A stretch of DNA of 56,400 bases, taken from contig CAZRQQ010000002.1 of assembly GCA_964602465.1 (NCBI GenBank), positions 1-56,400 on the forward strand, given 5' to 3'. Below are positions 43,464 through 56,121 of the stretch, in pieces (positions within the stretch are counted from its first letter, which is position 1; each line of letters starts with the position of its first letter). The position numbers were made by a program, and so were the translations under genes. Under the pieces are notes generated by a model, which saw only the letters and a list, made by a program, of their open reading frames with translations, made no database searches and was not told the origin of the DNA. The stretch is from an uncultured Candidatus Saccharibacteria bacterium. Its GTDB lineage: Bacteria > Patescibacteriota > Minisyncoccia > Phycocordibacterales > UBA9973.

Positions 43464-44759
43464 ATGCCAAACACAGAAAATATTGCATCTTATACTCAAA
43501 ATGTCATCAAACGGGATGGTTCCATCCAGTCTTTTGATACAAAAAAGATAATCCAAGCAATCTACAAGGCGATGCTCTCTGTCGATAAGGGAAGCTTGGA
43601 TGACGCGAGATTTGTTGTCAAAAGTGTACTTCTTGATCTTGAAAAAAATCATGACCCTGAAGAAAAATACCCGAGCGTTGAGAAGATTCAAGATATTGTT
43701 GAGCAAGAATTAATGAAAAAAGAATTCTTTGATGTTGCAAAGTCATATATTCTATATAGACAGCAAAGAGCAGAGATGCGTAAACGTGACATTTTTAAAA
43801 AAAGAACTAATCTAAAGCCTTACGAATATCCCGAACTATATGAATATGTAAGCGCAATACGACATTCATACTGGATTCATACAGAATTTAATTTCACTAG
43901 CGACATACAGGACTTCAAAGTAAATGTAAATGAAAAAGAGAGAAATGCAATAAAAAACGCAATGCTTGCTATCGCGCAGATCGAAGTTACTGTTAAAACA
44001 TTTTGGGGTGATATATATAAAAAAATGCCGAAGCCTGAAATTGGTGCTGTCGGATTTACTTTTGCTGAAAGCGAAGTTAGGCACATGGATGCGTACGCTC
44101 ATTTGCTTGAGATACTTGGATTAAATGAAGAATTTAAAAAAATAAAAGAAATTCCTCCACTTATTGATCGTGTCAGATATCTTGAAAAAGCAATAAAAAA
44201 TTCTCGAAGTGAGGATCCTAGAGAATATGCTCAGGCCATTTTGCTTTTTTCTCTTTTTATTGAACATGTTTCATTATTTTCTCAATTTCTTATTATTATG
44301 TCATTTAATAAACATAGGAATATTTTCAAGGGAATATCAAATGCTGTCGAAGCAACTTCTAAAGAAGAACAAATACACGGGCTCTTTGGTATCGATGTTA
44401 TCAACGTTATAAAGAGTGAGCATCCAGAATGGTTTGATAAAGATTATGAGAATACTATTGTCGAGTCCTGCAAGGAAGCATTCGAATCAGAAAAAAAGGT
44501 TGTTGATTGGATACTTGAAATGGGGGAAATCGATTTTATACCAAAAAATGTAGTGCTTGAATTCGTTAAGAATAGATTTAACAACTCTCTTGCAAGTATC
44601 GGTATCTCTAGAATATTTGAAGTTGATAAAAATCTTTTGGAAAAAACTGATTGGTTTGATGACGAAGTTATTGCAACGAAGCACGGAGATTTCTTCGTGA
44701 AAAGGTCGATTAATTACAATAAGAGAAATCAAAGCGTCACAGGTGACGATTTGTTCTAA
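43464..44759 (+). CDS. nrdB: class I ribonucleotide reductase beta (radical-generating) subunit with N-terminal ATP-cone
   Basis: N-terminal VIKRDGSIQSFDTKKIIQAIYKA (ATP-cone). Ferritin-like di-iron ligand motifs E..H (ESEVRH, EEQIH). Confidence 0.75.
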   Translation: MPNTENIASYTQNVIKRDGSIQSFDTKKIIQAIYKAMLSVDKGSLDDARFVVKSVLLDLEKNHDPEEKYPSVEKIQDIVEQELMKKEFFDVAKSYILYRQQRAEMRKRDIFKKRTNLKPYEYPELYEYVSAIRHSYWIHTEFNFTSDIQDFKVNVNEKERNAIKNAMLAIAQIEVTVKTFWGDIYKKMPKPEIGAVGFTFAESEVRHMDAYAHLLEILGLNEEFKKIKEIPPLIDRVRYLEKAIKNSRSEDPREYAQAILLFSLFIEHVSLFSQFLIIMSFNKHRNIFKGISNAVEATSKEEQIHGLFGIDVINVIKSEHPEWFDKDYENTIVESCKEAFESEKKVVDWILEMGEIDFIPKNVVLEFVKNRFNNSLASIGISRIFEVDKNLLEKTDWFDDEVIATKHGDFFVKRSINYNKRNQSVTGDDLF

Positions 44760-44767
44760 TTAAATAT

Positions 44768-46492
44768 ATGAAATGGCTCAATGAACAGAGTAAATTATTT
44801 TTAGCAAAAGGATATCTCGCAAAAGGAGTAACCGCTGAGGAAAGAATACGTGAGATCGCAAACGTAGCAGAACGTATTCTTAACAAAGAGGGTTTTGCAG
44901 ATAAATTTTATGCATACATGTCAGAGGGATACTATTCTCTCGCATCTCCTGTCTGGTCAAATTTCGGACTAACTAAAGGTTTTCCTATCAGTTGTTTTTC
45001 TTCTTATGTTGGAGATGACATGGGGCAGATACTTTTTACCGAAGCAGAAGTTGGTATGATGAGTAAATATGGCGGAGGTACTGCTGGTTATTTTGGTGAT
45101 CTGCGTCCTCGTGGAGCGAGTATTAAAGATAATGGTATTTCTTCTGGAGCGGTTCATTTTATGAGACTTTTTGAAACAATGGTAAATGTTGTAAGTCAGG
45201 GTTCTGTCAGGCGTGGTCATTTTGCTCCATATCTGCCACTAGAACACAAAGACATTCACGAGTTTTTAGAAATCGGCACAGAAGGAAATCCTATCCAAGA
45301 ATTGACCTATGGTGTTACTGTTACGGATAAATGGCTAAATGATATGATCGATGGAGATCAAGAAAAAAGAGATATTTGGGCGAAAGTATTACAAAGAAGA
45401 AGCCAGATAGGATATCCATATATTTTATTTACTGATACTGTGAACAGAAACACGGTAGATGTTTACAAAGACAAAAATCTAAAGATACACGCAAGTAACT
45501 TATGCTCGGAAATATTACTTCCTTCTAATGAAAATTGGTCAGTTGTTTGTGATCTTTCCTCTATGAATCTTCTTTATTATAATGAATGGAAAGACACAGA
45601 TGCAGTAGAGACACTTGTTTATTTTTTAGATGCAGTAATGAGCGATTTTATTAGTAGATTGGAAGATTTTCGCGACAGTGGAGAAACGCATAAAAAACAA
45701 GCATTTCTTTTCATGGAACGTGCATACAATTTCGCAAAAGCAAACCGAGCACTGGGTCTTGGTGTCCTTGGATGGCACTCTCTTTTGCAAAGCAAAATGA
45801 TTCCTCTTGGAAGTACCGAGGCGAATGATCTTAATAAAGAAATATTTAAAGATCTTCATGATCAGTGCTATGCTGCTTCAGAAAAACTTGCAAAGGAATA
45901 CGGTGAACCAGAAATACTTGTAGGATACGGTAGAAGGAACACGACACTCCTTGCTGTTGCTCCTACAACTTCTTCTGCTTTTATCTTAGGACAAGTATCT
46001 CAGAGTATAGAACCTTTGTGGTCAAACTGTTATGTCAAAGATATTGATAAAATGAAAATCACTATTAAAAACCCTTTACTTGAAAAACTTTTAGAAGAAA
46101 AAGGTCTAAATACCAGAGAGATTTGGCAAGGCATAAGAGAAAATGACGGTTCAGTACAACATCTTTCAGAAATTACAGATAAAGAGAAAGAGATTTTTAA
46201 AACATTTGCTGAGATTGACCAAAAAGTAATTATTGAACAGGCTGCTGAAAGACAAAAATACATAGATCAAGGACAATCGCTTAATCTCATGATCGATCCT
46301 TCAATTCCAGCAAAAGAAGTAAATGCTTTATATCTTCATGCATGGAAGCGTGGTATCAAAACATTTTATTATCAACACAGCATGAATGCTGCTCAGCAGT
46401 TTGGGCGTAAAAAACTTAAAGAAGTTAATTTAAAACAAAAAGAGGTCGATCAAGATGAATCTAAAAATGTATGCATTTCGTGCGAAGCATAA
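44768..46492 (+). CDS. nrdA: class I ribonucleotide reductase alpha subunit (short, no ATP-cone)
   Basis: Active-site NLCSEILLP motif. C-terminal Cys pair (CISC). 574 aa. Confidence 0.8.
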   Translation: MKWLNEQSKLFLAKGYLAKGVTAEERIREIANVAERILNKEGFADKFYAYMSEGYYSLASPVWSNFGLTKGFPISCFSSYVGDDMGQILFTEAEVGMMSKYGGGTAGYFGDLRPRGASIKDNGISSGAVHFMRLFETMVNVVSQGSVRRGHFAPYLPLEHKDIHEFLEIGTEGNPIQELTYGVTVTDKWLNDMIDGDQEKRDIWAKVLQRRSQIGYPYILFTDTVNRNTVDVYKDKNLKIHASNLCSEILLPSNENWSVVCDLSSMNLLYYNEWKDTDAVETLVYFLDAVMSDFISRLEDFRDSGETHKKQAFLFMERAYNFAKANRALGLGVLGWHSLLQSKMIPLGSTEANDLNKEIFKDLHDQCYAASEKLAKEYGEPEILVGYGRRNTTLLAVAPTTSSAFILGQVSQSIEPLWSNCYVKDIDKMKITIKNPLLEKLLEEKGLNTREIWQGIRENDGSVQHLSEITDKEKEIFKTFAEIDQKVIIEQAAERQKYIDQGQSLNLMIDPSIPAKEVNALYLHAWKRGIKTFYYQHSMNAAQQFGRKKLKEVNLKQKEVDQDESKNVCISCEA

Positions 46493-46948: not shown

Positions 46949-47407
46949 CTACTTATCCATAAGTATAATTTTTTTATTCGCCAAACAGATTTTACTCTTC
47001 AAGCACCCAAGCAATTCTCGTTTTTCAATATCGTCTCCTTCTTTCAGTATATACTTTGCGTATCCTCGTATATCAATATCAGGGATACTAATTTTTTCTT
47101 TAGTTCCTACTAGAAACTTTTGCATTTTAGAAAAGCGTTCAACATCTTCTTTTATCTTTTCTTTGATTTGGATCTCATTGAGATTTACATTTTCGATAAG
47201 TAATTGAAATTGCTTCAATAATTCTTTCTCTTCAATAGCACCACACTTACAATCTGGATCTCTGGCTCTTGTGCATCTATAGTAAACATAACGATGTACA
47301 TTTCCATTCTTCTGCTTCTTAAATTTCTCGTCAGCGGTGATGCCTGACTCGCACAGTCCGCAAGTCATCATTTTAGTGAAAGCAAATTCTTTGTTTTCAA
47401 CTCTCAA
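46949..47407 (-). pseudogene. truncated large serine recombinase (C-terminal zinc-ribbon + coiled-coil portion only)
   Basis: CGLCESGITADEKFKKQKNGNVHRYVYYRCTRARDPDCKCGAIEEKELL is the recombinase zinc beta-ribbon domain. The N-terminal resolvase and recombinase domains are absent. Confidence 0.6.
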
Positions 47408-47514: not shown

Positions 47515-48240
47515 ATGGCTGCACTTGGCGGTATCCCCTGGGTGGGAAGCGTTCTAAGTGCGGCTGCAACACTTTCTGCTGAAAACGAACAAGGCAAAAC
47601 GAATCAAATAATGTTTTTGTGGGTGCAGGAACACGAACAAAAATTCAAAGAGCTAGGAGTGACCTTGAATGGTATTTTTGAGAGATTTAGTTCGTTTGGA
47701 GATGAAGTAAATGCAAGATTGGAATCAACTGAGTACCTCACTCTTGTTAGAAAAACTTTCCGACTATGGGATCAGGCAGAAACACATGAAAAGAAGGAAA
47801 TGTTCAAAAAGTTGATTACTAATTCAGGGGTGATTACTTTGGCCCAAGATGATCTTGTCAGACTCTTTCTGGAATGGATTGAAAAATATCACGAGTTCCA
47901 TTTTGCTGTAATCAGAGAAATCTATACGACTCGCGGTATCACTCGTGGTGGCATTTGGGAAAGAATCAGAGGAGAAGAACCTCGGGAAGATTCAGCAGAA
48001 ACAGACTTGTTCAAATTACTTATACGCGACCTAAGTACGGGCGGCGTAATTCGTCAGGAGAAAGAAACCAATTCCCTAGGACAATTTGTAAGAAAGACTC
48101 GTTCAAAAGGAACTAGTCGTAGTTCTGTGTATGAGTCAGCATTTGAAGACACTAAACCATATGTTTTGACTGAATTAGGAGCGCAGTTTCTTCATTACGT
48201 TATGGAGGATATTGCACCTCAAATAGGAAGTGGAAGCTAA
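47515..48240 (+). CDS. hypothetical protein
   Basis: 241-aa ORF. No recognisable domain. Confidence 0.4.
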   Translation: MAALGGIPWVGSVLSAAATLSAENEQGKTNQIMFLWVQEHEQKFKELGVTLNGIFERFSSFGDEVNARLESTEYLTLVRKTFRLWDQAETHEKKEMFKKLITNSGVITLAQDDLVRLFLEWIEKYHEFHFAVIREIYTTRGITRGGIWERIRGEEPREDSAETDLFKLLIRDLSTGGVIRQEKETNSLGQFVRKTRSKGTSRSSVYESAFEDTKPYVLTELGAQFLHYVMEDIAPQIGSGS

Positions 48241-48249
48241 AAAGTAATT

Positions 48250-48579
48250 ATGAAAAATAACGCACATCTCGGAGAGACAAAAGAACAGAGATTAAAAAGG
48301 TTTAATGAAAATGGTCCGTATGAAGTGATAGCTACTATCACTAATTCAATGGCTAATCATTTAGTAAATGAATTGCGAACCGTTTTTTATAATCCACCAA
48401 ATTATCAAACATCGCTGATGTTTCTAGGTACTCATTCAATTGCTCTTACTATTGCTCATGGTTTCTGGAACAAGGGAGGAGAAAATGGATACAAGCTTTT
48501 CTTAGAACACTTTATAAGGGTATATAAGAACCGTTTACTTTTTTCTAACAGGCGTTACAATACGAGCATTATTATCTAA
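48250..48579 (+). CDS. hypothetical protein
   Basis: 109-aa ORF. No recognisable domain. Confidence 0.35.
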   Translation: MKNNAHLGETKEQRLKRFNENGPYEVIATITNSMANHLVNELRTVFYNPPNYQTSLMFLGTHSIALTIAHGFWNKGGENGYKLFLEHFIRVYKNRLLFSNRRYNTSIII

Positions 48580-51500
48580 ATGGGGCAAACCCGTATGTTT
48601 ATGAACAACCGAAAAGCGCGACAAACACTTCTTACAATCATCTCTACTTTTACGAAAAAGCTAGCGTTATCGACGCTAGCTTTTTCGCTTCTTTTTGGAT
48701 CAGTACCATTTGCATTTGCACAAGAGGTGTCTGAGTCTCAAAATACACCACTAACTGAATCTACAGAAACACCATCATCCACAATACCAACAGGAGATGG
48801 GAGTACTTCTTCAGGGCAATTGCTCCCATCTACAACAGATCAAACCGATACTGTAATTTCTCCTGAAAATATTCAACCCGCAATTGCCCTTGCGGGGCAA
48901 TCCGGGGTCGGTAATGCCGGCACTACTCCAGACAACGATGTGACTGGATTGACACACCAGCAACTCCCTAATGTAAACGATAGTGGTATCCTCTCGTATA
49001 ACTACCCCTTGACCATTGCGCCTGGACGACTAGGACTAACACCCAGTCTTTCGCTTTCTTATAACAACAGAAACCGTGACGACGGCGTCTTTGGTGTTGG
49101 TTGGTCACTTTCTATTCCATACATCGAACGAACCAACAAAAAAGGTATTGATACTACCTATACCGATAACTACTTTAGTTCAAGCCAAGCAGGAGAACTT
49201 GCCCTTGTTTCGGGTACGACGTATGCCCCACGTGTAGAAAATGGTGAATTTTCAAGTTACGATTTCGACGGAACGAAATGGACTGTTGTTGATAAAAAGG
49301 GTGTTACCTATAAATACGGTGTACAAGCTGCAACTCGCCAGGATGACCCGGGTAATGCAAGTAGAGTATATCGATGGTATCTCGAAGAAGTCCGAGATAC
49401 AAACAACAACTACATCACCTATGAATACTACAAAGATGCAGGACAGATTTATCCTTTAAAAATCACATATACAGGTAACGGGGTTACAGCGGGTGTCCTT
49501 ACAGTACATTTTGTCCGAACTGCACGAACAAATCCAATCATTTCATATGCTACTGGTTTTGGGGTAATAACAAACTATCAAATCACAGAAGTTCGTAATG
49601 AAATAAACAGTGTTTGGACGAGAAAGTATACACTCGCATATACGACTGCAGACAATACAAAAAATCTCCTGATCAATACAATCACTGAATCTGGACAGGA
49701 TGAGAGTGCGGTTGTCACAACACTTCCTGCAACTGACTTTGATTACAAAACATCAGATCCGAACTGGACGTATAACTCTACATACAATCTCCCAGAGACC
49801 TTCTATACAACGAGCGGTAAAGATAGAGGGCTTCGTATTGATGACATGACAGGAGACGGCATGGCTGACATTACCTGTCATAATGGCGCCTCAACAGGAA
49901 ACTGCGCCCAAACAGGAGCAATTTCTTGGAAAAACAATGGCGCTGGGTGGACTGCACTAGGACCATGGGATTACCCATCAATGGGAGGTGTACCGTTCAT
50001 GACCACTGAACGATTTACTGATAGCACATATGCAGATGCTGGGCTTCGAATCTTTGATGTAAACGGTGATGGAATGGCCGATTTGGTACGATCTGATGGT
50101 ACGAGTGGGACTGGTCCATATGTCTATCTCGCCAACGGCACAAATGGTTGGACATATTCGTCAACATGGAATTTCCCTCCGATTAACTTTGTAACAAATG
50201 GTGCCGACAATGGTATGCGTATCGCAGACATCAACGGCGACGGCTTGCCAGATGTGGTGTGTGCCGCTCGAGGAAATAGCTGTGCCGGAAATAGTGGAAT
50301 GATCTGGATAAATACAGGATCAGGGTTTGTAGATAAAACAACATCATGGTCAATGCCAAAGATTGGCGGAGATCCACTTGCTCAAAGTGAAGCATTTACC
50401 GACAGTAGTTTCCAAGACCTGTCACTCCGATTGCTCGATGTAAACGGTGACGGACTTGCTGATTTGGTACGAGCATCACAAAGTGCACTTTATACGTATC
50501 TCAATAATGGTGTAAACGGATGGATATATACTGCAAGTTGGAATATGCCGATCCCGTTCTACGACAGTGCAAACAATGATTATGGTGTTCGAATGGCTGA
50601 TATCAATGGTGATAATCTTCCAGATATTCTCTGCCATACTGCAAATGCAGGTGCAAGTAACTGTAGTCAACTAGGTCCTGTGTTTTATATCAACACTGGT
50701 TCAGGTTGGGTAGGAGCAAGTTGGAACTTCCCGAATATCGGTGGCATTGTTACCAATAATACGGAAGCATTTACTTCACCTTCATACCAGGATACCTCAC
50801 TCCGTATTGTTGATATAAACGGTGACGGACTCAGTGACCTGGTACGAGGAGCAGACGGTTTTCTATATACCTATATCAATAACAATAGTGTAAAGGCCGA
50901 TCAGCTTACTAAGATAACCTATCCATCTGGTGGCTCAAGTACTATCACGTACAAACCAGCGCAGTTTTATCGAGACGGATCAAACAATGCGCTCAACCCA
51001 AAACTTCCGATGGTACTTGATGTGGTTTCGCAGATAGTGACCGATGATGCATTTGGTGGTACCGCTCAGACGACAAGCTATACCTATGAAAAAGGGTTAT
51101 ACTACACCGCAGCAGTCAATGATCGAAAGTTTGCAGGATTTAATATTGTCACTAAAACTGACGGTGCAGGTAATATCACAAAAACATACTATCACCAAGC
51201 AGATACCACGGACACCTCACTCGGTGAATACAATGATGAGTTCTCTAAGATCGGAAAAGTGTATCGAGTTGAGCAGTATGATAATGCGGGCAATCTCTAT
51301 CTAGTCACTGTAAACAAATGGGATAAATACAATCAAGCAACCGATCGTGACTTTGTGAAGCTTGCTCGACAAACAACACTTGCCTATGACGGTAATGGAA
51401 CGCACAAGGATACCGCAACGGAGTACACCTATGACAACACGAACGGTTCAATATTAACTCAAACTGAATGGGGCGAAGTGGCTGGAGCGACCGATGGATC

Positions 51501-54500
51501 ATTTAGTGATACAGGAACTGACAAACGTGTGACCACAAATCTATATGCAACCAATGGTACCACCAAAGTTGTCGCTGTCTACAACAGTACTGTTACTGAT
51601 CAGTCGGCAGCAAAAGTACGAGAGGATAAGTACTACTACGATACACTCGCGTATGGCTCAGTATCTAAGGGTAATCAAACTAAGAATGAAAAATGGAAGA
51701 CAGCAAGCACCTATGTCAATACTCAGAAAACATATAATGCAACCTACGGAAATGTTGCAACAGAAACTGACGAACGTGGTAAGGTAACGACCTATACGAC
51801 GTATGATACGTATAATCTGTATCCAATTACTATCACCAATCCGCTCTCACAGACTACGCAATATCTCTATGACTACTCGCTTGGTAAACCAAAACAAGTC
51901 ACCGATCAAAATGGATTTGTCTACAAGACTACCTATGACGGACTCGATCGTGTAAAACTCATTCAAATTCCTGATTTCACTACACCCTACAGCGCTATAA
52001 CGAAAACTTCGTATACGTACACTGATACGTCGGGTGCGGTGCGTATCCAAAAAAGTGATTACCTCGATGGTACTGTGATTGCAGATACCTATCAGTACCT
52101 CGATGGTCTCAATCGCATCATTCAAGAACGCAAGAAGTCAGAAACATCGCCGACCTATAACATCACAAACACGATGTACAACAGTGTTGGATTGGTGCTC
52201 AAGCGTTCAATTCCACACACAGGTACCGGTGCATCACGAAGCACTCCTTCAGCGACAACATATCTCTACATCAACTACACGTATGATCCTCTCCAACGCG
52301 TGCTCACTCAGTCGGATGCGATTGGTACTACAACCTATGCATATGATGACTGGAAGACGACGGTTACCGATCGTAACGGCAAGGTCAAGAAGTACTATAC
52401 CGATGCCTACAATAATCTCATAAAAGTTGATGAGATCAATGGCGCTTCAACGTATACCACCAACTATGAGTGGAACCTCAACGCAAAGCTTACCAAAGTC
52501 ACCGATGCATCAAGCAACATCCGTAACTTCACCTATGACGGTCTCGGCCGACGCCTTACAGCACAAGATCTTCACGCTTCAGCAGATGCGACATTTGGTA
52601 CTTGGACGTATACCTACGATGATGCAGGAAACTTGACCCAGACTATTAGTCCTCGATCGCTCACGACCAATTACACCTACAACGATATCAATCAACAACT
52701 CACCGAAGATACGACTGGTGTGGCAGGAACGGAAATCACGTATACGTATGGCGGTTGCACAAACGGTACTGGAAAACTCTGTACAGTTACAATGACAAGC
52801 GGCGCAAACACGTCATACACATATGATTCAAATGGCAACCTTGCAAGCGAGATCAAGACGGTCAATAGCAATGCGTACACAACGTCATATACCTACGATC
52901 GACAAGGAAATATCGTTACAGTTACTTATCCTGATGGTGCACAAGTAAAATACACCTATAACGTTGAAAATCTCCCTGAAAAGATTGAACGAAAGGAAAG
53001 CGGTGGTGCATTCACAAATGTGATCTCAAACTTCGATTACAACGCAGCAAGCCTCATCACAACCCAAGCCTATCCAAATACTGTTACAACGACAAACACC
53101 TACGATCAGGCGAAGCTCTACAGAATGACTCGTCGTCTGACGCAAAATACAGTACCCACTAAAATGCTCGATCTTAACTACACCTACGATAATGAAGGAA
53201 ATATTACCCAGGTAATTGATTCGTCAAATACAACTACTTCGAAGACTGCTAACTATGCCTATGACGATGTATATCGTATGTTATCGGCAACGATAACGAC
53301 AGTGTCATCAGGAACGACTGCATATACGCACACTTACACGTATGATGCACTCGGCAATATTCTCACAGGTCCAATTGGTACTTACCTCTACCAAGGAAAC
53401 ACAGGAGTGCTCACTGCAAACCCTCATGCGGCAACCTCGATCAATGGGGTCACCTACACGTACGATGCAGATGGTAATCTCACCAGCAACGGTACGCTTG
53501 CAAATACATGGAACTATAAAGACCAGCTCACACAGACTGTAGTCGGAGGTGTAACGATCAACGATTACTATGACCACAACAGTGATCGTGTCTGGCACAA
53601 GGTCGGTACGGCAAACAACTACTATCCAAACAAGTACTACAATGTTGATTCAACAGGAAAGAAGACCAAGCAGATCTACGCAGGCGATCAACTTGTTGCA
53701 ACAGTTGAAACGGTTGGTACTACCGTCACTCCGTACTACAACCATGTTGATCAGGTCAACTCTGTGACTGCGGTGACAAACGGCACAGGCGCATCGGTTG
53801 CAACGCTCGACTACTTCCCGTACGGTAACCAGCGTATCTCAAGTGGTACGTATACTTCACAACGACAGTACATTGGACAGGTTTATGACACCAATGCACA
53901 GCTCAACTATCTCAATGCGCGATATCTCAAATCTAATATTGGAAAGTTCATTAGTGAAGATCCAATGTTCTGGAGTATGACTGATACTGCACTCAGAAAT
54001 CCTCAATATACAAACTCATATTCATATGGAAATAATAATCCGATCACTCTAAGTGATCCAACAGGTAAATGCATCTGGGACGGTTGTATCGCAGAAGGAA
54101 TGCTCCTAGCAGCGGCTACTCAAGCTATTGCACCACTTCTGACGACTGCTTATGTTACTGATTATGTTGGGACACAGTTAAATCCCACTGTTTCTACATC
54201 AGTGAAGTCACAGGCAAATAAGCAAGCTCTAGATGCTCTTGCCTTAGGAGTCGGGATTTCTATAAGTATGCCAAATGCAAACTTCTCTAGGGTAGCTCCA
54301 TCAGTAGCTCCTTCTACGTCTCGAGCATCAGTTCTACAAGCAAACAAAGCAGCTGGTGCTGCATTTGAAACTAGCGAACTAAAAGCTATTACTAAATCAT
54401 TTCCAGTAACTCAAACTCAGTTGACCATCAAAACACCGAGCGGTATTACTACTAGAATGGATATTATAGCTAGAGATTCTTTGGGAAATATTTGTCTATT

Positions 54501-54666
54501 CGAGTGTAAGTCATCTATTACAGCTCCTCTAACAAAAAACCAGTCTCTCGCATTTCCGGAAATACAAAAATCTGGAGGAATGATTATGGGAAATGGTAAG
54601 CCTGGATTTCCTGGCAATACGTTAATCCCTCCTACAAGAGTTAATATATTAAGACCTGTAAAATAA
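48580..54666 (+). CDS. secreted RHS-repeat polymorphic toxin of Tc-toxin BC-like architecture (SpvB-like region, FG-GAP repeats, YD/RHS shell, RHS core with DPxG, variable C-terminal toxin domain)
   Basis: Signal peptide. SpvB-like segment GVFGVGWSLSIPYIERT. Five FG-GAP-like repeats (D(V/I)NGDG.(A/P)D(L/V)V). Many YD repeats (YTYD..GN). RHS core ...ARYLKSNIGKFISEDP. DPTG at 54054-54065 followed by a ~200-aa AT-rich tail. Confidence 0.85.
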   Translation: MGQTRMFMNNRKARQTLLTIISTFTKKLALSTLAFSLLFGSVPFAFAQEVSESQNTPLTESTETPSSTIPTGDGSTSSGQLLPSTTDQTDTVISPENIQPAIALAGQSGVGNAGTTPDNDVTGLTHQQLPNVNDSGILSYNYPLTIAPGRLGLTPSLSLSYNNRNRDDGVFGVGWSLSIPYIERTNKKGIDTTYTDNYFSSSQAGELALVSGTTYAPRVENGEFSSYDFDGTKWTVVDKKGVTYKYGVQAATRQDDPGNASRVYRWYLEEVRDTNNNYITYEYYKDAGQIYPLKITYTGNGVTAGVLTVHFVRTARTNPIISYATGFGVITNYQITEVRNEINSVWTRKYTLAYTTADNTKNLLINTITESGQDESAVVTTLPATDFDYKTSDPNWTYNSTYNLPETFYTTSGKDRGLRIDDMTGDGMADITCHNGASTGNCAQTGAISWKNNGAGWTALGPWDYPSMGGVPFMTTERFTDSTYADAGLRIFDVNGDGMADLVRSDGTSGTGPYVYLANGTNGWTYSSTWNFPPINFVTNGADNGMRIADINGDGLPDVVCAARGNSCAGNSGMIWINTGSGFVDKTTSWSMPKIGGDPLAQSEAFTDSSFQDLSLRLLDVNGDGLADLVRASQSALYTYLNNGVNGWIYTASWNMPIPFYDSANNDYGVRMADINGDNLPDILCHTANAGASNCSQLGPVFYINTGSGWVGASWNFPNIGGIVTNNTEAFTSPSYQDTSLRIVDINGDGLSDLVRGADGFLYTYINNNSVKADQLTKITYPSGGSSTITYKPAQFYRDGSNNALNPKLPMVLDVVSQIVTDDAFGGTAQTTSYTYEKGLYYTAAVNDRKFAGFNIVTKTDGAGNITKTYYHQADTTDTSLGEYNDEFSKIGKVYRVEQYDNAGNLYLVTVNKWDKYNQATDRDFVKLARQTTLAYDGNGTHKDTATEYTYDNTNGSILTQTEWGEVAGATDGSFSDTGTDKRVTTNLYATNGTTKVVAVYNSTVTDQSAAKVREDKYYYDTLAYGSVSKGNQTKNEKWKTASTYVNTQKTYNATYGNVATETDERGKVTTYTTYDTYNLYPITITNPLSQTTQYLYDYSLGKPKQVTDQNGFVYKTTYDGLDRVKLIQIPDFTTPYSAITKTSYTYTDTSGAVRIQKSDYLDGTVIADTYQYLDGLNRIIQERKKSETSPTYNITNTMYNSVGLVLKRSIPHTGTGASRSTPSATTYLYINYTYDPLQRVLTQSDAIGTTTYAYDDWKTTVTDRNGKVKKYYTDAYNNLIKVDEINGASTYTTNYEWNLNAKLTKVTDASSNIRNFTYDGLGRRLTAQDLHASADATFGTWTYTYDDAGNLTQTISPRSLTTNYTYNDINQQLTEDTTGVAGTEITYTYGGCTNGTGKLCTVTMTSGANTSYTYDSNGNLASEIKTVNSNAYTTSYTYDRQGNIVTVTYPDGAQVKYTYNVENLPEKIERKESGGAFTNVISNFDYNAASLITTQAYPNTVTTTNTYDQAKLYRMTRRLTQNTVPTKMLDLNYTYDNEGNITQVIDSSNTTTSKTANYAYDDVYRMLSATITTVSSGTTAYTHTYTYDALGNILTGPIGTYLYQGNTGVLTANPHAATSINGVTYTYDADGNLTSNGTLANTWNYKDQLTQTVVGGVTINDYYDHNSDRVWHKVGTANNYYPNKYYNVDSTGKKTKQIYAGDQLVATVETVGTTVTPYYNHVDQVNSVTAVTNGTGASVATLDYFPYGNQRISSGTYTSQRQYIGQVYDTNAQLNYLNARYLKSNIGKFISEDPMFWSMTDTALRNPQYTNSYSYGNNNPITLSDPTGKCIWDGCIAEGMLLAAATQAIAPLLTTAYVTDYVGTQLNPTVSTSVKSQANKQALDALALGVGISISMPNANFSRVAPSVAPSTSRASVLQANKAAGAAFETSELKAITKSFPVTQTQLTIKTPSGITTRMDIIARDSLGNICLFECKSSITAPLTKNQSLAFPEIQKSGGMIMGNGKPGFPGNTLIPPTRVNILRPVK

Positions 54667-54667
54667 T

Positions 54668-55000
54668 ATGTCAGTTGATCAGAAAAAAGTAATAGACGCA
54701 ATAAGTATTGATGAGAAATCAAATGAAGTTTTACTGTTTATTTTTGACCACCACACATGGGATGACCCAAAGAGTGATCATGCACTTATCTTGCAAGATA
54801 AAATAAATGATTATCTGTCTTATGTTGAAAGTGGAGAAATATATGAAAACAATCCACAATACAAAAACAAGCCCTTAGTTATAATTGTTAAAGGAAAATA
54901 TCCATTAAGTGAATTTGGTAAAAGCTTTTATGAAAAAGCAACCTCAATAGTGCAATGGGCTGGCTTTGATCTGAGATTTGAACATAGCTCTACAAAATAA
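54668..55000 (+). CDS. putative cognate immunity protein
   Basis: 110-aa ORF starting 2 nt after the toxin's stop codon. AT-rich like the toxin's C-terminal module. Confidence 0.45.
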   Translation: MSVDQKKVIDAISIDEKSNEVLLFIFDHHTWDDPKSDHALILQDKINDYLSYVESGEIYENNPQYKNKPLVIIVKGKYPLSEFGKSFYEKATSIVQWAGFDLRFEHSSTK

Positions 55001-55007
55001 TGTAAAT

Positions 55008-55040
55008 AAAATATCCCCGTAAATGGGGTATTTTATTTTG
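55008..55040. terminator. hairpin terminator between convergent genes
   Basis: atatcccc-gtaaat-ggggtat with flanking A/T-runs. Confidence 0.5.
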
Positions 55041-56121
55041 CCAACCGTACACGCCTCTGTCGAAACCGTTCGATCGGGTCAGCAATGAATCTGTTGAGTA
55101 ATAGTGCAAACCCTATGCTTAATACAGCAATAAACGGTCCCATATACCGCACTTGTACCGAAAAGAATGTGACGATCGTGATGACGAGAATATGGCAGAT
55201 ATAGACTGGATATGAAAGCTCACCAATCTTTGAGTCGAACTTGGAGTTCTTGGTAACGATAAAGAGAAGTGGCAAACAAAGCACCACAAGCGCGAAATAC
55301 GATGCTTCGTGAAAAACCGAAGTATTGCCAGGATAATAGAGTCCAGTAGCAAGGCCTATCGCACTGAGCGCGGTATAGAGCACTCTTTGATCAAAGGTAT
55401 AGGTTTTGATCTTTGTATATAGTCGATATGTCAGCGTACCGATCAAGAAGAATGCGAGCTCAAGTGGAAACAATCGATGTGTCCATGGATCATGGTTGAA
55501 TCCGTGAGCATAGAGATACCAACGCAACCCAAGAGAAAGAGCAATAATAGTACCGATGATCCATGTTTTCTGTCTGACAATAAATGGCGCAATTAGATAA
55601 AACATGAGCTCGATCGCGATAGTCCATGCCTGGGGCACAAATAGAAAGCCATGCAGACGAGGTGTGGTCATAGTGAAGTCCGGGGTAAAGAACAGATGGC
55701 CTGTGGTACTATTGAGTCCGAGAAACATAACCAGATCCCCACCAAACAAAAAGAGGTTGCTGATGATGAGTAGCCCAATCGCAAAGATATCGAAATGCCC
55801 TCCCTGTGAGAGATAGTTAGCATAGACGCCCACTGTTGCACTATGGTCTCCAAACATGAGCATGACAGTGCCGAACAAGATCGTGAGGAGTAATACTGCC
55901 CAAAATATAGGAAAAATACGGAGAAATCGATTGGAGATGAAGAGTTTATATGACCCTGCCTTTCCGATATATTTCTCGCTCAAAATGAGCGACATATAGA
56001 ATCCTGAAATAATGTAGAACGCTTGAACTGCGATCTTACCCCCGACGAGGTATGTCCCAAAAAATGATGAGGAGTGGGCTGCTACAACTGATAAAGCCAA
56101 GAGAAGTCTGAATATGCCCAT
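55033..56121 (-). CDS. acyltransferase family 3 (OafA-like) membrane protein
   Basis: 362 aa with 10 predicted TM helices. N-terminal ...VAAHS..F motif of the acyltransferase_3 family. Confidence 0.75.
   Translation of the reverse strand: MGIFRLLLALSVVAAHSSSFFGTYLVGGKIAVQAFYIISGFYMSLILSEKYIGKAGSYKLFISNRFLRIFPIFWAVLLLTILFGTVMLMFGDHSATVGVYANYLSQGGHFDIFAIGLLIISNLFLFGGDLVMFLGLNSTTGHLFFTPDFTMTTPRLHGFLFVPQAWTIAIELMFYLIAPFIVRQKTWIIGTIIALSLGLRWYLYAHGFNHDPWTHRLFPLELAFFLIGTLTYRLYTKIKTYTFDQRVLYTALSAIGLATGLYYPGNTSVFHEASYFALVVLCLPLLFIVTKNSKFDSKIGELSYPVYICHILVITIVTFFSVQVRYMGPFIAVLSIGFALLLNRFIADPIERFRQRRVRLAK

Follow-up and report, generated by a model that had tools for sequence, protein, structure and literature searches.

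What is carried at the far end of a large RHS (rearrangement hotspot) protein, beyond the DPTG motif that closes its conserved core, and what is the small open reading frame (ORF) that follows it? These questions are raised by a locus on contig CAZRQQ010000002.1, from which a stretch of 56.4 kb was analyzed (in its entirety hereafter termed the window), where an RHS polymorphic-toxin gene is succeeded by a short gene of the DUF6572 family. An initial annotation had proposed that the residues after DPTG form an exchangeable toxin module, possibly a nuclease. We computed here the architecture of the locus, the predicted fold and residue conservation of the toxin, the position of the junction, the modular distribution of the domain, and the linkage between toxin and DUF6572. 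Taken together, these results point to the variable terminus of a secreted RHS toxin, namely, a DPTG-bounded PD-(D/E)xK nuclease, most likely a DNase, accompanied by a DUF6572 immunity protein, a reading to which we assign a probability of slightly more than three in four.

The RHS carrier and the module that begins at DPTG

The carrier matches the Pfam families SpvB (E 2e-17), FG-GAP_3 (8e-19), FG-GAP, TcdB_toxin_midN (6e-21), and RHS_repeat (4e-16, in ten stretches), as well as the NCBIfam models Rhs_assc_core and YD_repeat_2x. Along the chain, an N-terminus resembling a Sec signal peptide is followed by SpvB, an FG-GAP propeller, TcdB_toxin_midN, RHS/YD repeats, the core, a linker, and the toxin. 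The YD/RHS repeats leading into an Rhs-associated core that ends in DPxG are those of an RHS polymorphic toxin, and the union of SpvB, propeller, TcdB_toxin_midN, and RHS shell on one chain is that of a Tc-toxin-like BC fusion. The gene product can thus be read as an RHS protein that is secreted and whose shell is a TcB/TcC-like fusion. Its nearest core homologs bearing a source name are from Parcubacteria/Patescibacteria, which makes a patescibacterial origin of the contig likely. By analogy with Rhs and TcC proteins such as RhsA (PMC8765631), the Rhs core is predicted to be an aspartyl autoprotease that frees the tail.

It is at the DPTG motif, which the initial annotation recognized but placed one base off (54054–54065 instead of 54055–54066), that the conserved portion of the protein ends. 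In BLASTP alignments, the closest relatives of the RHS core (40–60% identity) mostly stop aligning at amino acids (aa) 1830–1842 of the query, 1–13 residues past DPTG, and continue with 140–230 unrelated residues; some of these homologs bear Pfam domains such as Peptidase_M15_4, VanY, SLT, Ntox44 with LysM, or PT-TG. This replacement of homology by a variable tail directly after DPxG is the behavior that defines RHS toxins. Only three homologs (P0116, P0001, and P0007) share both core and toxin with the window protein, aligning through aa 2026 at 35–49% identity over the aligning stretches. The toxin domain itself sits on RHS, haemagglutinin-repeat (CdiA-like), MafB, DUF6443-RHS, PT-TG, extracellular contractile injection system (eCIS) core, and other carriers, and its family occurs in Pseudomonas, Burkholderia, Photorhabdus, Enterobacter, Bacillus cereus, Clostridia, Bacteroidota, Planctomycetota, Myxococcota, and the Candidate Phyla Radiation (CPR). 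Because the domain is found on unrelated scaffolds and homology breaks just after DPTG, the toxin is a swappable module, as the initial annotation had surmised. DPTG is best explained as marking the point where autoproteolysis is predicted to release the tail and, on the evolutionary scale, the junction at which recombination occurs.

The tail released at this point would comprise ~199 residues, an 84-residue linker and a 115-residue nuclease domain. The linker is rich in Ala and Gly and contains two moderately hydrophobic stretches (Kyte–Doolittle maxima of 1.34 at tail residues 13–31 and 1.01 at 53–71); it is partly conserved in the homologs P0001, P0002, and P0004, had no family match in the Pfam and NCBIfam scans, and could, speculatively, act as a translocation segment.

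Base composition also changes past the junction, though less simply than the markedly AT-rich turn that had been described there. GC content at third codon positions (GC3) falls stepwise from DPTG on, from 39.3% in the core to 29.8% in the linker (54067–54318) and 20.0% in the toxin (54319–54663), with 23.6% in the small ORF. The shift in total GC is modest. The core has 43.8%, and the tail in its first half (54066–54360) still has 45.4%, sustained by the Ala/Gly-rich composition of the first 84 residues; total GC drops only from ~54400, to 35.6% in the second half (54361–54666). The shift does continue, as claimed, through the small ORF (31.2%), beyond which the next gene, an acyltransferase, has 44.0%. 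The 640-nt block 54361–55000, at 33.3% GC, lies ~2.2 standard deviations (SD) under the contig mean (44.8%, SD 5.3), and just 3.4% of equal-sized contig segments are as low.

Whether this shift records an exchange, as the initial annotation took to be typical, is a separate matter. On its own it is weak evidence of transfer, since other parts of the contig (about 42–46.5 kb, 48 kb, and 25 kb) are equally AT-rich, among them the ribonucleotide reductase genes at 43464–46489. The AT-richness might then be ordinary local variation with no sign of recent acquisition, and the module might have been inherited vertically with the RHS gene, as the three homologs that share both core and toxin would suggest; we regard this alternative as possible but doubtful. 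The GC3 profile steps down at the junction, and the fact that homology with the nearest cores breaks off at DPxG implies that exchange has occurred here over evolutionary time. Furthermore, the shift gains weight from a comparison of 30 unrelated genomes bearing the module. Their GC averages 54.4% upstream, declines to 48.2% in the toxin and 43.1% in the partner gene, and is back at 55.6% downstream; the toxin at 17 and the immunity gene at 22 of the 30 homologous loci show a fall exceeding 5 points.

As an aside on the composition of the contig, the genes for the small (with ATP-cone) and large subunits of ribonucleotide reductase, both on the + strand, have 34–36% GC and 24–29% GC3, versus 49–51% for ribosomal and other housekeeping genes.

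The toxin domain and its predicted active site

Neither the 199-aa tail nor its 115-aa domain had any match in the Pfam and NCBIfam scans. A word-indexed search with the tail returned only eight homologs, which define a conserved C-terminal block of ~115 residues, and a profile of this block retrieved 1201 representatives of 50% identity clusters at E ≤0.001, including 276 at ≤1e-30; in the 150 best matches listed, the domain is C-terminal. On these sequence grounds, the toxin domain is one of a large family outside the Pfam and NCBIfam models, and no characterized member of it was found in the literature searched.

The AlphaFold2 model of the domain (predicted local distance difference test, pLDDT, 93.5; predicted template modeling score, pTM, 0.83) consists of a helix (2–27), three strands (30–38, 44–52, and 58–63), a second helix (73–85), and a short strand (87–89), which is the α1-β1-β2-β3-α2-β4 order of the PD-(D/E)xK fold. 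Foldseek searches with this model, a check suggested at the outset, gave weak matches, none at E ≤0.001, of which the top-ranked are PD-(D/E)xK nucleases; the closest are VRR-NUC, FAN1, TnsA, Hjc, and Vsr. The structural resemblance of the model to VRR-NUC is real. At the sequence level, the window domain has no match to VRR-NUC (PF08774), and 3 of 32 diverse family members match it below threshold (best E 0.007). Sub-threshold Pfam matches of these 32 members concentrate on PD-(D/E)xK-type families. No match to a Tox-REase model (PF15646, PF15647, PF15648, PF15649, or PF15650) was obtained at E ≤1 with the window tail, nine close homologs, or the 32 diverse members, which places the window domain outside these families as well as outside VRR-NUC.

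The peptide singled out by the initial annotation, RMDIIARDSLGNICLFECKSS, is present exactly (aa 1959–1979, nt 54454–54516) and contains the putative catalytic triad. In domain numbering, D48 lies within strand 44–52, and E62 and K64 lie at the end of strand 58–63, the D on β2 and (D/E)xK on β3 expected of the fold. Like E17, Q75, and flanking motif residues, each of them is either invariant or conserved in no less than 90% of sequences across three alignments, and this conservation is family-wide. In three independent sequence alignments, the triad lines up with known active sites, those of Card1, RdnE, and RhsA. With Card1, the family profile aGdaFE ... rlDliardssgniclvECKSs aligns to GGWFEE ... 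ELDVIYLDKDNKLHVIECKSF, so that the triad corresponds to D294, E308, and K310, the latter two of which we also take to be catalytic. The title of the Card1 entry 6xl1 in the Protein Data Bank (PDB) names a D294N mutant.

The predicted core fold and the alignment of the triad with known active sites thus support the nuclease hypothesis, and neither a non-nuclease fold nor a displacement of the D/E/K residues from catalytic positions was seen in the predicted fold and sequence alignments. Distant relatives of the domain are the toxins carried by RhsA of Pseudomonas protegens, RdnE/IdrD-CT of Proteus, and RhsB of Acidovorax. By analogy with such enzymes, it most likely cleaves DNA in a metal-dependent manner and kills target cells, DNA being the likely substrate because of the fold, the triad, and the nearest characterized relatives.

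The DUF6572 partner and the organization of the locus

The small ORF matches DUF6572 with 107.2 bits against a cut-off of 27, over profile positions 1–104 of 106. Its start codon lies 1 nt past the toxin stop, an arrangement best explained by translational coupling to the toxin gene. The pairing is nearly obligate from the side of the toxin: DUF6572 lies directly 3′ of it in 52 of the 53 toxin loci, among them every one of the five homolog contigs that the protein database yielded; the gap ranges from −4 to +37 nt, and the sole exception is a locus with a truncated toxin. The reverse link is weaker, as the toxin is immediately upstream in 20 of 70 testable metagenome DUF6572 loci and slightly further away in three more, the remaining copies being orphans. 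A toxin rarely found without DUF6572, and a DUF6572 often found without the toxin, constitute the asymmetry expected of a toxin and its immunity gene.

Physical and evolutionary properties point in the same direction. In the window, the isoelectric point (pI) is 10.1 for the toxin domain and 5.3 for the DUF6572 protein (family medians, 8.8 vs. 4.8); pairwise divergences of the two families are correlated (mirror-tree r 0.645, permutation p 2e-4), with DUF6572 diverging faster than the toxin. The model of the DUF6572 protein (pLDDT 84.5) has a mixed α/β fold. DUF6572 is most likely the cognate immunity protein, which would bind and neutralize the basic toxin in the producer, a role suggested by its genomic association with the toxin. 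The pairing of this toxin with DUF6572 was not found in the literature searched.

Autoproteolysis, nuclease activity, a DNA substrate, and neutralization by DUF6572, all of which we infer, would form part of a sequence of five steps. The RHS protein would be exported through Sec, as its signal-peptide-like N-terminus suggests. Its shell would enclose the tail, and the Rhs core would cut beside DPTG-K1830, as Rhs and TcC biology implies. The freed tail would then enter the target cell, possibly, and speculatively, aided by the linker. There, to judge from its fold, triad, and relatives, the PD-(D/E)xK domain would cleave nucleic acid, most likely DNA, while DUF6572, given its genomic association, would protect the producer.

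Several points weigh against this scheme. The catalytic residues were located by means of secondary structure and sequence alignment, not 3D superposition; the sequence links to characterized nucleases are all weak (E 1e-4 to 1e-2); and PD-(D/E)xK toxins can be RNases, such as the Burkholderia CdiA-CT tRNases, so that DNA as the substrate is not secure. In addition, in the only experimental report on DUF6572, the domain is fused C-terminally to type VII secretion system (T7SS) immunity proteins of Streptococcus suis, where it is dispensable for neutralization and promotes export (PMC12558993).

That the domain is a PD-(D/E)xK-fold RNase, for instance a tRNase, nevertheless appears quite unlikely, given that its closest structural matches work on DNA, that of the closest characterized toxins related in sequence, two (RdnE and RhsB-CT) have been shown to be DNases and RhsA-CT is predicted to be one (PMC12483513; PMC10989746; PMC8765631), and that it keeps the full acidic metal-binding triad with the lysine. 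An export adaptor or chaperone role for DUF6572, with immunity encoded elsewhere or unneeded, would accord with the S. suis EIC-CR/DUF6572, which was dispensable for neutralizing MSE-ExT1 and bound the EssC D1 ATPase (PMC12558993), and with the roughly two-thirds of testable metagenome loci where the toxin does not precede DUF6572, but it is very improbable here: no other ORF separates the toxin stop from the hairpin in the window, which leaves DUF6572 as the only immunity candidate; the 52/53 adjacency includes Gram-negative RHS/CdiA/MafB contexts, where T7SS EssC is not expected; orphans beside Barstar, DUF4265, and Tdi1_C resemble polyimmunity islands; an acidic partner of a basic toxin with correlated divergence suits a binding inhibitor; and the one-sided dependence of toxin on partner is the classic toxin–immunity pattern.

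A bolder extension of the immunity reading holds that DUF6572 is a dedicated immunity family with a catalytically dead restriction endonuclease (REase)-like fold, which blocks the toxin by mimicking a dimer partner (FokI/BspD6I-type) rather than by plugging the active site; that the S. suis export role is a secondary co-option; and that a CPR/Patescibacteria cell delivers the nuclease to neighboring or host cells via a Sec-secreted TcB/TcC-like RHS cocoon. Taken as a whole, we consider this unlikely.

The positions of the features in question are collected in Table 1. The terminator-like hairpin and the convergent acyltransferase gene close the toxin–immunity operon.

Table 1. Features of the RHS toxin locus, in window coordinates
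Feature	Position	Strand	Extent or placement	Basis
RHS polymorphic-toxin gene	48580..54666	+	2028 aa, 6087 nt	ORF list; Pfam and NCBIfam domain matches
RHS repeat-associated core	53812..54066	+	aa 1745–1829, ends in DPTG	TIGR03696, E 2.7e-13
DPTG	54055..54066	+	aa 1826–1829, border of conserved core and variable tail	Position; BLASTP of nearest cores
Pre-toxin linker	54067..54318	+	aa 1830–1913, 84 residues	Hydropathy; without family match
PD-(D/E)xK toxin domain	54319..54666	+	aa 1914–2028 and stop	Predicted fold, conserved residues
Predicted catalytic E1930	54367–54369	+	Domain G13-x-x-F16-E17	Helix 1 of model
Predicted catalytic D1961	54460–54462	+	Domain R46-x-D48	Strand 2 of model
Predicted catalytic E1975	54502–54504	+	Domain E62 of E62-C-K64-S-S	End of strand 3
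Predicted catalytic K1977	54508–54510	+	Domain K64	End of strand 3
Predicted catalytic Q1988	54541–54543	+	Domain N74-Q75	Helix 2 of model
DUF6572 (PF20212) gene, predicted cognate immunity	54668..55000	+	110 aa	Pfam, E 6.7e-31
Terminator-like hairpin CCCCGTAAATGGGG, then T-run	55015..55038	+	Hairpin itself 55015–55028	
Convergent acyltransferase gene	55033–56121	−	Next gene after hairpin	

On the 5′ side, two ORFs without a Pfam family directly precede the RHS gene on the + strand, at 47515–48240 (241 aa) and 48250–48579 (109 aa); both are AT-rich (41% and 33% GC, respectively), and the second stops right at the RHS start and may encode a co-translated accessory protein. Approximately 1.2 kb upstream of the RHS gene, an ORF on the − strand (46949–47404, 151 aa) matches nothing but Zn_ribbon_recom, a domain found in serine recombinases (E 3.7e-8); by appearance a recombinase remnant, it may lie at the border of an island. 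The window spans a complete metagenome-assembled contig, and a separate, independent assembly of 3.26 kb (L054) agrees with it without differences over the 3′ end of the RHS gene and over DUF6572.

The window holds no second copy of the toxin domain or of DUF6572, and hence none of the orphan cassettes for which the initial annotation had suggested a search downstream. Elsewhere, such arrangements do occur. In Bacillus cereus (L045, 2412–2972 and 4001–5037), a second, partial toxin with its own DUF6572 lies upstream of the main module and is orphan-cassette-like. In another locus (L004, 175–774), a HEAT_2-repeat gene lies immediately 5′ of an orphan toxin-domain copy; as HEAT repeats are the immunity partner given for Tox-REase-7 (Zhang et al., 2012; PMC3482391), this gene may be the leftover of a neighboring cassette. 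Orphan DUF6572 genes adjoin Barstar, DUF4265, and T6SS_Tdi1_C genes (L098–L100, ~128 nt upstream of DUF6572; L119/L120; L124), neighborhoods that look like heterogeneous polyimmunity loci (cf. Zhang et al., 2012). Other orphans follow housekeeping genes, by eye resembling the phosphoglycerate kinase C-terminus (L075/L077) or glycogen synthase (L067). Tandem DUF6572 copies follow a single toxin in several loci (L001, 2676–3377; L006; L009; L044).

The general logic of this locus is already known, that of a textbook polymorphic toxin and an ordinary bacterial weapon. What is useful is a toxin family of this size without a Pfam or NCBIfam model, and a near-obligate pairing that gives DUF6572 a concrete, testable role in immunity, in contrast to its export role in S. 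suis. If the Patescibacteria origin holds true, the locus adds to the evidence that ultra-small episymbiotic bacteria bear large contact or secreted weapons.

Comparison with known toxin–immunity systems

One of the closest known systems is RdnE (IdrD-CT)/RdnI of Proteus mirabilis and Rothia, where a PD-(D/E)xK toxin, shown to be a DNase and encoded next to its immunity gene, likewise forms the C-terminus of an Rhs protein (PMC12483513). Both toxins have a D–13 residues–E-x-K-S-S core, and hhalign matches D39, E53, and K55 of RdnE (IdrD/RdnE core, GLDIVALRPDGKFDIFEVKSS) to D48, E62, and K64 of the window domain (probability 51%, E 1.5e-4). RdnE is toxic only with all three residues in place, and in vitro its DNase activity is almost lost in the D39A mutant (PMC12483513). 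The systems diverge past the core, where RdnE has a variable “region 2” and the C-terminal half of the window family is highly conserved (GKGKPGFPGGTxIPPTxVxIxRP). They also differ in their partners, RdnI being described as all-helical and DUF6572 being modeled as mixed α/β, and in delivery, by type VI secretion (the T6SS) for RdnE and by a Sec-secreted TcB/TcC-like RHS protein for the window toxin. Membership in RdnE/RdnI was therefore rejected on account of the conserved C-terminal half and the α/β partner, despite the alignable core.

A second Rhs C-terminal toxin, RhsB-CT (Aave_0499) of Acidovorax citrulli with its partners RimB1-RimB2, is a shown DNase whose best structural relative is also a VRR-NUC, 4qbn (PMC10989746). 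The alignment of the Aave_0499 clade (PMC9635880) matches that of the window family (hhalign probability 56%, E 1.1e-4), and the order of motifs runs parallel in the two through strand 4: D ... E-x-x-S ... Q ... GG-x-hydrophobic-V ... I-x-R. The small tandem immunity genes downstream of Aave_0499 recall the tandem DUF6572 copies noted above. The Aave_0499 clade, however, has EVTS where the window family has ECKSS and lacks the canonical K, and in none of the 133 loci examined did a toxin of the Aave_0499 type turn up upstream of DUF6572.

The RhsA toxin of Pseudomonas protegens (PDB 7q97; PMC8765631), a predicted DNase from an Rhs cocoon that undergoes autoproteolysis at its C-terminus, is the only entry of solved structure with detectable sequence similarity to the window domain (E 0.45 with a single sequence and 0.0034 with a profile in the solved-structure search). 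The similarity spans ~55 residues with the common pattern R.DIIAKD..GN...FEVK....LTKNQ (in RhsA, RADIIAKDKAGNYHVFEVK ... LTKNQ), and the RhsA toxin is largely unresolved in 7q97. RhsA is a PAAR/T6SS effector, unlike the window protein.

The T6SS effectors TseV (VRR-Nuc), with their immunity proteins TsiV, are PD-(D/E)xK toxins that likewise come closest in structure to VRR-NUC/FAN1, and TsiV blocks the substrate-binding site of TseV (PMC9635880). TseV has a match to Pfam VRR_NUC and DUF3396 as its partner, whereas the window domain has no such match and pairs with DUF6572. A search of the supplements of the TseV paper with four core motif strings gave a few ECKSS/ECKAS matches from an unrelated clade, and the window family was not turned up.

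The Tox-REase families, too, are REase-fold C-terminal toxins on RHS/FilH carriers (Zhang et al., 2012; PMC3482391). The window motif, GxxFE ... RxD ... ECK ... NQ, resembles that of Tox-REase-7 (GxxxE, IxD, ExK, Q), and Tox-REase-1/PoNe and Tox-REase-6 have the pattern E, D, ExK, Q (PMC3482391). Their listed immunity partners (Imm-HEAT, Imm23, Imm54, Imm49, and Imm-PA2201) do not include DUF6572. The window family may coincide with one of Tox-REase-1, -4, -6, -8, and -10, which lack a Pfam model, but DUF6572 is not among the partners given for these either. In its manner of working, the window system is like RdnE/RdnI, RhsB/RimB, TseV/TsiV, and PoNe/PoNi.

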